A stretch of DNA of 64,000 bases from assembly GCA_963795085.1 (NCBI GenBank), contig CAWCFX010000003.1, forward strand, positions 331,696-395,695, in the 5' to 3' direction. This DNA is from an uncultured Gemmatimonadales bacterium (GTDB taxonomy: Bacteria > Gemmatimonadota > Gemmatimonadetes > Gemmatimonadales > GWC2-71-9). Within the stretch, counting starts at the first letter, position 1. Each line of letters begins with the position of its first letter. Under the pieces are notes generated by a model. The model had not been told where the DNA came from, did not search any database, and worked only from the letters and a program-made list of their open reading frames with translations. Below, in pieces: positions 48,356 to 64,000 of the stretch. The position numbers and the translations under genes were made by a program.

Positions 48356-49042
48356 TGGAGATAGTTACCGGCATGGCTGGACCGTGATGCGGCGGGACCG
48401 GGAGCGACCTTCCGCTCCTCCCGTTCACGGCGTCCCGGTGGATGATCGCGGACACCGCGCGCGGGCTCCCGGAGGTTCGGGACCTGTCACTCCCTGGCCC
48501 GGCGGTGGGTACCGGGAGCGGCAACTCTGCCGGGCCGAAGCTTCCCGCCTTCTGAACGCCTGCCCCCTGTGCCCGTGAAGCACGCAGCGAGGCATGGTGA
48601 CCGGAGGGTGATGCTTGTTGGTAGTGGGCCTGCCGAGACCTGGCCGGGTATTCCATGGCCCCTGCCCCGCTCATTTCTGGGCGGGATGCCGGAACCTCCT
48701 GTCTCCCTTCCCCCGGAACGGGGCGGCCTTCACTCCATGTGCCACTTCTGCCATACATGGTAGCGGGACCCCGTGCCGGGGAATCCTTCCTGCCACGCAC
48801 CCCGGTTTCACCCTCGGCCATCACCAGTTACCGGCATGCGCCATATCGAACGAACCGCACGCGCTCCTGGCACGCGGTCCTGAGATCCGCCGCCACGACG
48901 AGTACGGCCGATGGCGGGCAGCGGGACACGCTGCAATCGTTTCCCGCCCTGCGATCCCCCGGTTACTTTGCGTTACCGGCGTCAAAGCGCCCGGAAATCC
49001 TGCCGGTGATCCGTCCGCCCCTGCACCCGGGAAGAGAATACC

Positions 49043-49489
49043 ATGGTTCACGCGAACACCCGAAACCTGGCCGGCGCCGCCCAATCCGCGCTTCGCATTG
49101 CCGCGGGCCTGGCCTTCTTCAGCCACGGGGCGCAGAAACTGTTCGGCTGGTTTGGCGGCGTGGGACCGGATGGAGGGACGGTGGAGCTCATGAGTCGATA
49201 CGGCGCCGCCGGCCTCATCGAAGCCCTAGGCGGCGCTGCCCTCGTGCTCGGCCTGTTCACCCGCCCCGTCGCGTTGATCGCTTCGGGCGAGATGGCGGTC
49301 GCGTATTTCTGGATGCACTGGGGACGATCCGGCGAGATGTGGTGGTGGGACAACCGAGGGGAGATGGTCCTGCTCTACTCGTTCATCTGGCTCTTCTTCG
49401 CCGCCGCCGGGGCCGGGCCACTCAGTCTCGATGCCTGGCGCGCGTCACGTGGCAACCCCAGCCACCCGGCAGGACCTACCCCGGGGTAA
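49043..49489 (+). CDS. DoxX-family membrane protein
   Basis: ORF track 148 aa. ALRIAAGLAFFSHGAQKLFGWFGG...GLIEALGGAALVLGLFTRPVALI is the typical DoxX signature. Confidence 0.85.
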   Translation: MVHANTRNLAGAAQSALRIAAGLAFFSHGAQKLFGWFGGVGPDGGTVELMSRYGAAGLIEALGGAALVLGLFTRPVALIASGEMAVAYFWMHWGRSGEMWWWDNRGEMVLLYSFIWLFFAAAGAGPLSLDAWRASRGNPSHPAGPTPG

Positions 49490-49625
49490 CCGGCTCGACC
49501 GGCAGGTTGCCCAGCTGACCCGCTGCCCGCACTCGGTCAGGCGCGGGACAAGGGCGTAGCCGGGGGCCGGGATTCTTCGCCAGCGCCTCGCTGCTCCCCT
49601 TAGGTGGCTTCGGGCAGGCGAGGTG

Positions 49626-51005
49626 TCAATAGTCAGGGGTTCCCTTCAACGTCAGCCCTCTGTCGGCTATGTAGCGGTCAATAGTTTCGGACTCGATTTC
49701 TCGATGAAAATATTCCTGCGGTTGCTCAGACACATTGATGACATCGACTATTCGATTGTCCGCATAGCGCACTTCCAACAGTAACTGAATATCCTCATGG
49801 TCTCCATAGCGGGTTAACTGTCCACTGCGCCGGTCAATAAACCATCCGGCGCCCCATGTTCCCAGGCCTCTGATGCCGACGAGGAAGTAGTCACGAAGTG
49901 GCTCTTCATCCTGGGACTCATGGTGGCTCCCATCGGTCATCCTGCCGAGTATCGCAAAGTCCTTGGCGGCAATTCGTCCGAACTCAGGCTGCCATTCACC
50001 CCCGGTATTCATGGAACTGCGCTGCCGCATGAGATACGAGCTCAGCGGCGACTGGACCATGATCTCCTTGCCGGCCAGGCTCCACACCAGGTTGGCCGGT
50101 CTCCCCTCATTCATGTCGAAGCGGAAACGGAGGCGTTCCCGGTAGTGCTCCAGCCGCTGCAATGCATGCTTGATCCTCGGAACACACACCCACACCCGAT
50201 TACTATTGCTCAATTCGACCGGGGGATCGTTAGCCGCGTGGACATGCCAGTCCTTGAAACCGATCAAGCTCAGAGTCTTGGTGACCTTATCTACTGCCTT
50301 GTAGTCCTCAAAATAGACTTGGGTGGCTAACCGCCTTAACCAGAAACTGGGGTCGGCCCCGGAATGATCCCTGGACCGTTCGACCGGCGGATACAATATG
50401 TCAACGCGCGGACCGGTGCGTTGACCCGTGCTGCCCAGTTGCCAGAACCGCCTGAGATTCTCGATTTTGGGTATTGCATATCGCTTCTTGATGGCCACCT
50501 CATAGAGATCATGGGTGAATCGCTCCTTGAAGTCCTTGTCGGACCGGAACGAATGGAACACGATCCCTTCCGCCTTCAGGCGCTTCTGAAATGCCCGGAG
50601 ATCTCGCTCCTGTCGGCCTCGGTCATTGTTAGCGGGCAGCTCTTTGAAGTATGCGAGGACGCCGAACGATGGGTCACTTCGATGCTTGGCTAATGCCCGC
50701 TCTACTTCGCGCTCGACATTCCCTTTTTTGTGGCCGGGCTCTTTACTGCCGTACCGCTTACCCAGGATGAGGACAAAGAAATGGCATTCATCAATGCGCT
50801 TGTTGATCTCGTCCTGAAAGGTTACCTCGCCCGCCGGCATTGCAGGCGGCCGGTTCTCCCACTTCCATGGCAGTATGTGCAGTTGGAGCGATTGGCTCAG
50901 CCGTTTGCTGGTAGTCTCAATTACTTCCTCGGCGATCTGCCGCTCTTTGGAAACATCGCCAGGCGATGAAATGAACGCTAAGTAAGACTGATAAGCCTTG
51001 GCCAT
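49626..51005 (-). CDS. DUF4062-like (TIR/deoxyribosyltransferase-like) N-terminal domain protein with an uncharacterised ~360-aa C-terminal region
   Basis: ORF track 459 aa. N-terminus YLAFISSPGDVSKERQIAEEVI...EINKRIDECHFFVLILGKRYGS fits the DUF4062 pattern (FISS..D...ER...ecD.fv.i.g.rYGs). No Walker A motif. Local GC is ~55% versus ~68-70% in the flanks. Confidence 0.7.
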   Translation of the reverse strand: MAKAYQSYLAFISSPGDVSKERQIAEEVIETTSKRLSQSLQLHILPWKWENRPPAMPAGEVTFQDEINKRIDECHFFVLILGKRYGSKEPGHKKGNVEREVERALAKHRSDPSFGVLAYFKELPANNDRGRQERDLRAFQKRLKAEGIVFHSFRSDKDFKERFTHDLYEVAIKKRYAIPKIENLRRFWQLGSTGQRTGPRVDILYPPVERSRDHSGADPSFWLRRLATQVYFEDYKAVDKVTKTLSLIGFKDWHVHAANDPPVELSNSNRVWVCVPRIKHALQRLEHYRERLRFRFDMNEGRPANLVWSLAGKEIMVQSPLSSYLMRQRSSMNTGGEWQPEFGRIAAKDFAILGRMTDGSHHESQDEEPLRDYFLVGIRGLGTWGAGWFIDRRSGQLTRYGDHEDIQLLLEVRYADNRIVDVINVSEQPQEYFHREIESETIDRYIADRGLTLKGTPDY

Positions 51006-61739: not shown

Positions 61740-63070
61740 ATGGCCAAGGCTTATCAGTCTTACTTAGCGTTCATTTCATCGCCTGGCGATAGTTTCCAGC
61801 GGCAGATCGCCGAGGAAGTGGTAAGCTACCAGCAAACGGCTGAGCCATCGCTCAACTGCACGTGCTCCATGGAAGTGGGAACCGGCCGCCAAGCAGGCGG
61901 AGCATAACCTTTCAGGACGAGATCGACAAGCGCATTGATGAATGCCGTTCTTTGTCCTCATCCTGGGTAGGTACGGCAGTAAAGAGCCCGGCCACAAAAA
62001 AGGGAATGTGAGCGCGAAGCAGGGCATTAGCCAAGCATCGGAGTGACCCATCGTTCGGCGTCCTCGCATACTTGGAAGAAGCTGCTGACAATAACCAAGC
62101 CGACAGGAGCGAGATCTCCGGGCATTTCAGAACGCCAGGCGGAAGGGATCGTGTTCCATTCGTTGTCCGACAAGGACTTCAAGGAGCGATTCACCCATGA
62201 TCTCTATGAGGTGGCCATCAAGAAGCGATATGCAATACCCAAAATCGAGAATCTCAGGCGGTTCTGGCAACTGGGCAGCACGGGTCAACGCACCGGTCCG
62301 CGCGTTGAGCATCCGCCGGTCGAACGGTCCAGGGATCATTCCGGGCCGACCAGTTCTGGTTAAGGCGGTTAGCCACCCAAGTCTATTTTGAGGACTAGAG
62401 GCGGTCATAAGGTCACCCAAGCTCTGAGTTTGATCGGTTTCAAGGACTGGCATGTCCACGCGGCTAACAATCCCCCCGGTCGAATTGAGCAATAGTAATC
62501 GGGTGTGGGTGTGTGTTCCGAGGATCAAGCATGCATTGCAGCGGCTGGAGCAACTCCCGGGAACACCTCCGGTTTCCGCTTCGACATGAATGAGGGGAGA
62601 CCGGCCAACCTGGTGTGGAGCCTGGCCGGCAAGGAGATCATGGTCCAGTCGCCGCTGAGCTCGTCTGTCATGCGGCAGCGCAGTTCCATGAATACCGGGG
62701 GTGAATGGCAGCCTGAGTTCGGACGAATTGCCGCCAAGGACTTTGCGATACTCGGCAGGATGACCGATGGGAGCCACCATGAGTCCCAGATAGAAGAGCC
62801 ACTTCGTGACTACTTCTCGTCGGCATCAGAGGCCTGGGAACATGGGGCGCCGGATCGTTTATTGACCGGCGCAGTGGACAGTTAACCCGCTATGGAGACC
62901 ATGAGGATATTCAGTTACTGTTGGAAGTGTGCTATGCGGACAATCGAATAGTCAATGTCATCAATGTGTCTGAGCAACCGCAGGAATATTTTCATCGAGA
63001 AATCAAGGAATCGATTGACCGCTACATAGCCGACAGAGGGCTGACGTTGAAGGGAACCCCTGACTATTGA
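61740..63070 (+). pseudogene. decayed copy of the DUF4062-like gene
   Basis: Fragments are MAKAYQSYLAFISSPGD (in ORF 61584..61907), GIVFHSLSDKDFKERFTHDLYEVAIKKRYAIPKIENLRRFWQLGSTGQRTGPRV (62043..62363) and FRFDMNEGRPANLVWSLAGKEIMVQSPLSS (62505..62885). The tail ...LKGTPDY* is at 63050-63070. Confidence 0.75.
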
Positions 63071-63207
63071 CACCTCGCCTGCCCGAAGCCACCTAAGGGG
63101 AGCAGCGAGGCGCTGGCGAAGAATCCCGGCCCCCGGCTACGCCCTTGTCCCGCGCCTGACCGAGTGCGGGCAGCGGGTCAGTTTCGGCAACCTGCCGGTC
63201 GAGCCGG

Positions 63208-63649
63208 TACCCCAGGGGTAGGTTTCCTGCCGGGTGGCTGGGGTTGCCACGTGACTCGCCGGCATCGAGACTGAGTGGCCCGGCCCCGGCGGCGGCGAAG
63301 AGGAGCCACGGTAGAGCGGCCCGGCCCATCTCCCCTCGGTTGTCCCACCACCACGTCTCGCCGGATCCGGTCCGTGCATCCAGAAATACGCGACCGCCAT
63401 CTCGCCCGAAGCAATATGGACACGACGGGGCCGGTGAACAGGCTGAGCACGAGGGCAGCGCCGCCCTAGGGCTTCGATGAGGCCGGCGGCGCGGTAACGA
63501 GCTCGTCAGCTCCACCGTCCCTCCATCAGGTCCCACGCCGCCGAACCAGCCGAACATTTTCTGCGCCCCGTGGCTGAAGAAGGCCAGCCCGCGGCAATGC
63601 GAACGGGCTAGGCGGCGCCGGCCAGGTTTCGGGTGTTCGCGTGAACCAT
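63208..63649 (-). pseudogene. decayed copy of the DoxX gene
   Basis: ORF 63608..63934(-) ends in MVHANTRNLAGAA. ORF 63093..63836(-) contains GLAFFSHGAQKMFGWFGGVGPDGGTVEL followed by frame loss. Confidence 0.7.
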
Positions 63650-64000
63650 GGTATTCTCTTCCTGGGTGCGGGGCAGGGGTCGCCTTTTTTTCCGGCGCCT
63701 TGACGCCCGTAACGCAAAGTGACCCCGGGGCGGGAAACGATTCCAGCGTGTCCCGCTGCCCGGCCATCGCAGTACTCGTCGTGGCGGCGGATCCCAGGGC
63801 CGCGTGGCGCGTGCACGTTGGTTCGATATGGCGCATGCCGGTAACTGGTGATGGCCCAGGCTACGGGGAGTCCGTGGCAGGAAGGATTCCCCGGCACGGG
63901 GTCCCGCTACCATGTATGGCAGGAGAAGTGGCATGGAGTGAAGGCCGCCCGTTCCGGGGGAAGGGAGACAGGAGGTTCCGCATCCCGCCCAGAAATGAGC

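Follow-up and report, generated by a model that had tools for sequence, protein, structure and literature searches.

Fold-back artefacts make up ~0.55-0.6% of ONT gDNA reads according to Breakinator profiling; in such reads there is often nothing between the two segments, and they can tangle assemblies (PMC12870357). Palindromic artefact reads obtained after whole-genome amplification have been profiled by Pacasus (bioRxiv 10.1101/173872), and in Nanopore reads that pass through inverted duplicates, bases are missed and the accuracy is low once the junction has been crossed (Spealman et al. 2020, PMC7229812). A spacerless palindrome would also be obtained by sequencing through the hairpin telomeres of Borrelia, of the linear chromosome of Agrobacterium or of N15-type prophages. 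Bacteria cope poorly with long palindromes that have almost no spacer, which are subject to SbcCD cleavage.

The palindrome studied here is located at the end of the 64-kb stretch of DNA that we analysed (the window). It resembles the described fold-back artefact reads in that a single locus is represented on opposite strands, with a 13-nt gap and no adapter, which would result in a false inverted duplication. Unlike those reads, it is frozen into an assembled contig and is known from the assembly alone. It also shares with the Nanopore reads through inverted duplicates (PMC7229812) a post-junction arm that is shorter and rich in errors, in our case by 244 nt and with deletions exceeding insertions 2:1. 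The inverted duplications in that study, of yeast and human, were real however, whereas the present one is most likely artificial and its sequencing platform is a presumed one.

Comparison of the window with its own minus strand by blastn demonstrated that the right arm is the reverse complement of the left arm; the positions of the arms and of the features on them are given in Table 1. Two collinear matches were obtained, one pairing 48669-51152 with 64000-61601 (91.3%, E = 0) and a self-palindromic one covering 51195-61593 (92.1%, E = 0). Global alignment of 48669-56456 with the reverse complement of 56457-64000 gave 7897 columns, containing 7210 matches, 225 mismatches and, on the right arm, 157 deletion events (353 nt) and 73 insertion events (109 nt), a ratio of ~2:1. 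Aligned in this way the left arm measures 7788 nt and the right arm 7544 nt, and they are identical at 91.3% of all columns and at 97.0% of aligned base pairs. The breakpoints of the two opposite-strand segments lie only 13 nt apart, well inside the ~200 bp that defines a fold-back. The largest run of missed bases in the right arm corresponds to a G+C-rich intergenic stretch. The left limit of the left arm is fixed solely by the end of the window at 64000. Because the alignment is still running where the window ends, the repeat may reach beyond it, and the right arm probably does so.

Table 1. Positions in the window of the two arms, the turn and the features on the arms.
Feature	Position	Strand	Remarks
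Left arm	48669..56449	+	Polished genomic sequence, intact genes
DoxX, 148 aa	49043..49489	+	Left arm; counterpart 63208-63649
DUF4062/TIR-like, 459 aa	49626..51005	-	Counterpart 61740-63070, 32 frameshifting indels
G+C-rich intergenic stretch, 61 nt	51140..51200	.	Collapsed to 26 nt at 61589-61614
Hypothetical, 352 aa	51297..52355	-	Counterpart 60453-61491, 35 frameshifting indels
Hypothetical, 209 aa	52504..53133	-	Counterpart 59684-60305, 17 frameshifting indels
Hypothetical, 336 aa	53319..54329	+	Counterpart 58549-59499, 30 frameshifting indels
Big_2/RCC1 lipoprotein gene	54526..56449	+	Cut by the turn at ~codon 642 of 661
Chimeric ORF, 684 aa	54526-56580	+	Crosses the turn into the reverse complement
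Turn of the fold-back	56450..56462	.	13 nt, ATGTACCAATCCA, matching neither arm
Broken Big_2/RCC1 copy	56460..58349	-	50 mismatches, 46 indels (42 frame-shifting), 14-18 stops per frame
Right arm	56463..64000	-	Reverse-complement copy of left arm, ~8.7% errors

The palindrome is therefore confirmed as a property of the sequence, and the original prediction described it well. The collinearity that it had proposed was borne out by both blastn and global alignment; the centre, estimated at ~15 nt, measures 13 nt; the right arm, thought to be ~240 nt shorter, is 244 nt shorter; and the identity of ~90% judged by eye compares with 91.3% over all alignment columns. The larger deletion that had been cited as an example near 51,150-51,200 is also real, since 51140-51200 pairs with only 61589-61614. 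The same agreement was found at the level of the genes. All six genes that had been read on the left arm are intact, and their counterparts on the right arm, predicted to be broken, contain 17-42 frameshifting indels each and stops in every frame. Pfam matches in the Big_2/RCC1 gene were to Big_2, RCC1 and WD40_RLD, and no Pfam matches were obtained for the three hypothetical proteins of the left arm (336, 209 and 352 aa). Long uninterrupted genes are found in the remaining 48 kb of the window, and unpolished sequence is therefore confined to the right arm.

The turn falls within the Big_2/RCC1 gene, which allowed a comparison at the protein level with contigs of an independent Logan assembly of run ERR12037361, which may or may not be the data set behind the source contig. 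This assembly encodes a protein of 661 aa (P0001) that matches the 644-aa query up to the turn with 100% identity, although it diverges from the window ORF already from ~residue 642. Beyond the turn P0001 continues for another ~19 residues, and its C-terminus (...STGRIYCWGGGAHTPTLMKGQVP) is conserved in four homologues (P0002-P0005); alignment of the C-termini showed that the window ORF leaves the reading frame of the homologues exactly at the turn. Those RCC1 homologues that are named point to Gemmatimonadota; the best hits of the DUF899 protein, all ~72% identical, were scattered among many phyla and were uninformative as to the organism. The contig encoding P0001, of 2560 bp, contains the last ~19 codons of the gene and then a further 342 nt in which ORFs were called. 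The true sequence beyond the breakpoint, giving the 661-aa P0001, thus differs from that giving the 684-aa chimera. A look-up of protein clusters found the 684-aa junction form (P0121) only on the source contig of 396,436 bp. Exact copies of the 459-aa DUF4062/TIR-like and the 352-aa proteins are present on ERR12037361 contigs, on one of which a 209-aa gene adjoins the 352-aa gene. An exact-protein look-up returned no record of the right-arm ORFs 62127-62780 and 63093-63836 or of the 684-aa ORF, a result that is uninformative by itself, and a 72-mer specific for the right arm had no match in genome_contigs or metagenome_contigs. No sequencing adapter was detected at the turn, nor could one fit into a spacer of 13 nt. 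Text searches linked ERR12037361 neither with a publication nor with the Microflora Danica Nanopore project.

The differences between the arms were polarised using an outgroup sequence that is ~82% identical (L001). Among 74 differing sites, L001 agreed with the left arm at 53, with the right arm at 6 and with neither at 15, which is approximately the split expected for random errors at positions where the outgroup itself differs. All polarised indels (26/26) were derived on the right arm, and gap openings relative to L001 numbered 5 in the left copy of the Big_2/RCC1 gene versus 32 in the right copy. The differences between the arms were distributed 22/27/25 over the three codon positions, as opposed to 69/58/211 for real divergence. 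Differing columns were about as frequent in coding (8.4%) as in non-coding sequence (10.1%), 164 of the 191 coding indels shift the reading frame, and transitions were hardly more numerous than transversions among the substitutions (121:104; Ts/Tv 1.16). The ratio of indel events to substitutions was 230:225; a value near 1 had been noted beforehand as atypical of neutral decay, and it points to an artefact. Removal of a tandem copy accounted for only 2 of the 42 deletions of at least 3 nt, and zero microhomology was present at 24 of them. Accordingly, the arm alignment revealed no slippage or microhomology signatures in right-arm indels, and one-base deletions were not enriched in homopolymers. 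The errors are spread roughly evenly along the right arm (87-97% identity per 500 columns). The right arm thus displays the error profile of a raw read, and the left arm is of consensus quality. Deletions of exactly 3 nt (n=20) and 6 nt (n=10) were observed, and none of 5 nt; this excess of 3-nt and 6-nt deletions is left unexplained by a fold-back model.

These results bear directly on the possibility that the palindrome arose by a real inverted duplication long ago, that this became fixed, and that its right arm is decaying to pseudogenes. The genes of the right arm are indeed all broken and those of the left arm intact, but after neutral decay both arms should contain synonymous changes, the spectrum should be rich in transitions and dominated by substitutions, and the indels should bear slippage or microhomology signatures, and none of these was found. 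Instead of substitution-dominated divergence of both arms with mutation-type indels, the errors are polarised, codon-blind, rich in indels and restricted to one arm. In addition, the single RCC1 copy would have lost its C-terminus through the duplication, but an intact 661-aa form exists. We therefore regard this explanation as very improbable, and a biological inverted duplication is not supported. The identity of ~97% at aligned bases is within the range of strain variation, as would be the case if the right arm were the contig of a related strain mis-joined in inverted orientation. A living strain, however, would not bear 17-42 frameshifts per gene, nor should its differences be without an excess at third codon positions, and a join at the identical base on both strands is not predicted either. 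On the basis of the frameshift load and the flat distribution over codon positions this origin was rejected; its probability is negligible.

The position of the turn bears on two other explanations. If a linear replicon ended here in a covalently closed hairpin, sequencing round it onto the opposite strand would likewise yield a palindrome that lacks a spacer and has a noisy second arm. However, the turn lies within a conserved gene, inside one of its codons, and in the ERR12037361 assembly the DNA goes on beyond it, so that the molecule does not end there. The larger ORFs of the window, among them Ser/Thr kinases, BTAD/TPR regulators and beta-lactamase-family enzymes, also look chromosomal, and no protelomerase (telomere resolvase), plasmid or phage genes were present among the ORFs scanned in the 64-kb window, which included all predicted genes of at least 200 aa. 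A hairpin end is hence scarcely credible. The remaining explanation is a real spacerless palindromic rearrangement, generated in vivo by template switching at ~56450-56462 in a subpopulation only and caught by a few long reads or even a single one, the errors of the second arm being technical. The nearly spacerless junction is like that of template-switch products, and sequence alone cannot tell a fold-back made in the library from a rare event in vivo. On the other hand, the ERR12037361 assembly recovers the unfolded gene on a contig that passes through the breakpoint, the junction ORF occurs on one contig only, artefacts of this kind are common in ONT gDNA libraries (PMC12870357), and a palindrome of this length and with so short a spacer is poorly tolerated by bacteria. 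Taken together, we consider an in vivo origin unlikely.

We conclude that the right arm is, with high probability, the product of a fold-back chimeric long read retained in the contig, and not DNA of the organism. The original prediction had left three explanations open. The one that invoked a fold-back chimeric read or an unpolished contig end is favoured by the palindrome with its random errors polarised to one arm and by the real gene that continues past the turn. The other two did not hold: read-through of a hairpin is contradicted by the ~19 residues of the Big_2/RCC1 gene that lie past the turn in the ERR12037361 assembly, and the decay of one arm of an old duplication by the nature of the errors. 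According to the fold-back explanation, a single inverted chimeric long read would have followed one strand, turned at ~56450-56462 and returned along the complementary strand, and the assembler would have used this read to lengthen the contig past the last position that could otherwise be reached. Genuine reads of the locus would find a better match in the left arm, which was accurate already, and because they prefer that arm the right arm would have been left at single-read depth with its raw errors. The right arm would then be supported by one read, and the contig would be expected to end soon after 64000. The platform was probably Nanopore, as the deletion-biased spectrum with multi-base 'skips' would be consistent with it. 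At ~8.7%, the errors are more frequent than would be expected of the newest Nanopore chemistry, unless folding back had lowered the accuracy of the second arm.

The significance of these results is limited to data hygiene and the quality control of assemblies. At least 7.5 kb of the deposited contig would not be genome sequence, and should be removed by trimming at 56449, followed by re-polishing, rather than interpreted. Scans of long-read MAGs for palindromes, pseudogenes or 'decaying duplications' will keep meeting such ends, and three tests that require no reads can separate artefact from biology: polarisation with an outgroup, the distribution of differences over codon positions, and the look-up of the junction protein in independent assemblies. 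In the present case the artefact yields a chimeric protein of 684 aa, already public as P0121, together with a string of fake pseudogene fragments. It also conceals where the Big_2/RCC1 gene really ends at its 3' side and the sequence downstream of it; the continuation of this gene past ~56450 would encode ...RIYCWGGGAHTPTLMKGQVP*.

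The original prediction described an inverted duplication centred at ~56,456, with collinear arms and a shorter, indel-rich right arm, and this description proved true throughout. The self-comparison it proposed, run as a minus-strand blastn self-search of the window, gave two collinear inverted matches (both E = 0): 48669-51152 against 64000-61601 (91.3% identity), and the self-palindromic stretch 51195-61593 (92.1%). Aligned globally, 48669-56456 and the reverse complement of 56457-64000 span 7897 columns, with 7210 matches, 225 mismatches, 73 right-arm insertions (109 nt in total) and 157 right-arm deletions (353 nt), and the right arm (7544 nt) is 244 nt shorter than the left (7788 nt). 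The collapsed stretch cited as an example was also correct: the G+C-rich region 51140-51200 is reduced to 61589-61614. The turn itself, 56450-56462, consists of 13 nt that match neither arm. Because the alignment reaches the last base of the window, the repeat may continue beyond it.

The intact left-arm genes are listed in the table. Their right-arm counterparts contain 17-42 frameshifting indels per gene, and stop codons in every frame. The 48 kb preceding the arms contains long, unbroken genes of ordinary chromosomal type, encoding Ser/Thr kinases with TPR or PD40 repeats, BTAD regulators, a multicopper oxidase, DUF899 and beta-lactamase-family proteins; poor sequence quality is therefore limited to the right arm.

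Coordinates of left-arm genes and of repeat families in the window
Feature	Coordinates	Strand	Remarks
DoxX	49043-49489	+	left arm, intact
DUF4062/TIR-like protein	49626-51005	-	left arm, intact, 459 aa
Protein without Pfam match	51297-52355	-	left arm, intact
Protein without Pfam match	52504-53133	-	left arm, intact
Protein without Pfam match	53319-54329	+	left arm, intact
Big_2/RCC1 lipoprotein	start 54526		left arm
Intergenic repeat copies	19125-19231, 20744-20850, 20973-21079, 27818-27901, 28070-28153, 34298-34349, 34970-35076, 35941-36047		
Hairpin repeats near Y1 transposase	39335-39592, 41884-41936, 43791-44060, 45148-45481, 47556-47734, 48693-48723		

The RCC1 gene lies across the turn, and its ORF (54526-56580, 684 aa) runs on into the reverse complement. 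When the first 644 residues were used as query, a 661-aa protein (P0001), encoded on a 2560-bp contig from the Logan assembly of run ERR12037361, was 100% identical across the whole query. Its C-terminus, ...GGCGLTSTGRIYCWGGGAHTPTLMKGQVP, forms the final RCC1-blade motif plus tail, which is common to homologues P0002-P0005 from four other samples (57-83% identity to the window ORF over the full alignment). The window ORF has ...GGCGLTSTGHVPIQPVGG... in place of this ending, and departs from the family exactly at the turn. The ERR12037361 contig continues for 342 nt beyond the P0001 stop codon, with more called ORFs. Cluster look-up placed the 684-aa, junction-spanning form (P0121) on one NCBI/ENA contig only, the 396,436-bp source contig; a 72-mer specific to the right arm matched nothing in the two contig collections searched. 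The left-arm 459-aa and 352-aa proteins are unchanged in ERR12037361, where the latter adjoins a 209-aa gene of the same length and position as its left-arm neighbour. The organism's own DNA carries on past 56449 and completes the RCC1 gene.

The polarity of the arm differences was determined with an outgroup, the 9980-bp Logan contig L001 (run SRR24605837), which aligns over the RCC1 gene and encodes P0002 (83% identity). The left copy is 81.6% identical to L001 with 5 gap openings, and the right copy 77.8% with 32. The three-way alignment contains 74 sites at which the arms differ: L001 has the left-arm base at 53 of them and the right-arm base at 6, and matches neither arm at 15. Every one of the 26 indels (20 deletions, 6 insertions) is right-arm-specific, none being specific to the left. 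Mismatches between the arms are spread evenly over the codon positions (22/27/25), as against 69/58/211 for outgroup divergence. Over the whole arm, differing columns make up 8.4% of coding and 10.1% of non-coding sequence, coding indels have a length other than a multiple of three in 164 of 191 cases, and Ts/Tv is 121:104. Among deletions of at least 3 nt, 2 of 42 removed a tandem copy and 24 had zero microhomology; tandem duplications account for 3 of 21 insertions of at least 2 nt. One-base deletions across the arm showed no homopolymer excess over the base-composition expectation, and identity per 500 columns varies between 87% and 97% without trend. The right-arm differences are random, one-sided, deletion-biased noise, and not mutation, whether filtered or unfiltered by selection. 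Deletions of exactly 3 nt (20) and 6 nt (10) are over-represented in the right arm, compared with 7 of 4 nt, none of 5 nt and 2 of 7 nt. A quirk of the base-caller or of the consensus may be responsible; selection is not indicated, since frameshifts prevail overall.

The right arm is an appended, error-laden reverse copy, and the inverted repeat is almost certainly an assembly artefact rather than a biological structure. Two biological readings put forward in the original prediction are excluded. A hairpin telomere at the turn conflicts with a molecule that extends past this point and with the position of the turn inside a conserved codon; no resolvase, plasmid or phage genes were found among the window ORFs scanned, which include all predicted genes of 200 aa or more. 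Neither the polarity nor the spectrum of the differences fits an old inverted duplication with one decaying arm, and an intact 661-aa gene exists, which contradicts it as well. The frameshift load, together with the flat codon-position distribution of mismatches, likewise excludes a right arm derived from another strain. Long spacerless palindromes are unstable in bacteria, which, with the known artefact rate, makes a rare in vivo fold-back captured by a read unlikely.

The remaining reading offered originally, a fold-back long read or unpolished contig end, is favoured by the one-sided noise and by the continuation of the RCC1 gene elsewhere; the most economical mechanism is a fold-back chimeric long read. 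Such a read would have lengthened the contig, and the right arm would then have stayed at the depth of one read, the accurate left arm being the better alignment target for genuine reads. Nanopore reads of inverted duplicates, which have missed bases and low accuracy in the post-junction arm (PMC7229812), resemble the window in their shortened, error-rich second arm, and would fit its multi-base, deletion-biased skips. Fold-back artefacts constitute ~0.55-0.6% of ONT genomic reads, have sequence between the segments in less than half of the cases, and are thought to originate in library preparation (PMC12870357). We infer the sequencing platform, single-read support and contig-end position; a literature search matched no publication to the accession ERR12037361. 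For quality control, the contig should be trimmed at 56449, and the 684-aa chimeric protein and right-arm ORF fragments discarded.

Several other features were observed. L001 7107-8957 aligns with window 54587-56432 (RCC1) and L001 647-2079 with 37197-38623. The 481-aa gene at 37.2-38.6 kb is ~16 kb from the RCC1 gene in the window, and its homologue in L001 only ~5 kb; the interval, including the lower-G+C stretch, therefore differs between relatives. G+C falls from ~68% to ~61% from roughly 49 kb onward. The 459-aa DUF4062/TIR-like gene lies inside this stretch, and its product matches the N-terminal 166 positions of PDC-S60, a candidate defence protein in PADLOC (E = 7e-20); the gene may belong to a defence island. 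A 20-kb stretch contains three paralogous genes of the beta-lactamase family (PF00144; 3056-4141, 15265-16899, 19355-20626), accompanied by two BTAD/TPR regulators and two Ser/Thr kinases, and 46522-47490 (+) has the MerR-HTH plus B12-binding architecture of CarH-type light-responsive regulators.

An intergenic repeat of 50-100 nt with core TTCGAGGCGCTTTACCGCAGAGGACGC..GA.TGAACTGAGAGTTTCGCAGA is present in at least 8 copies and is kept in a relative from another sample (L001 118-179); a REP-like element is one candidate identity, a small structured RNA or regulatory motif another. Many short hairpin repeats, GACAGGCTGAAGCCTGTC and CCCTTCCCCCGTCGGGGGAAGGGGG, surround an IS200-like Y1 transposase ORF at 38721-39221 (-; Pfam Y1_Tnp, E = 5e-22), an arrangement that looks like a REP/RAYT system. 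Finally, ~7 tandem copies of a 144-nt unit (40692-41697; 76-81% identity) span the end of an FG-GAP ORF (39596-41047) and reach into the following ORF-poor gap; this array may be a repeat-domain gene missed by simple ORF picking.
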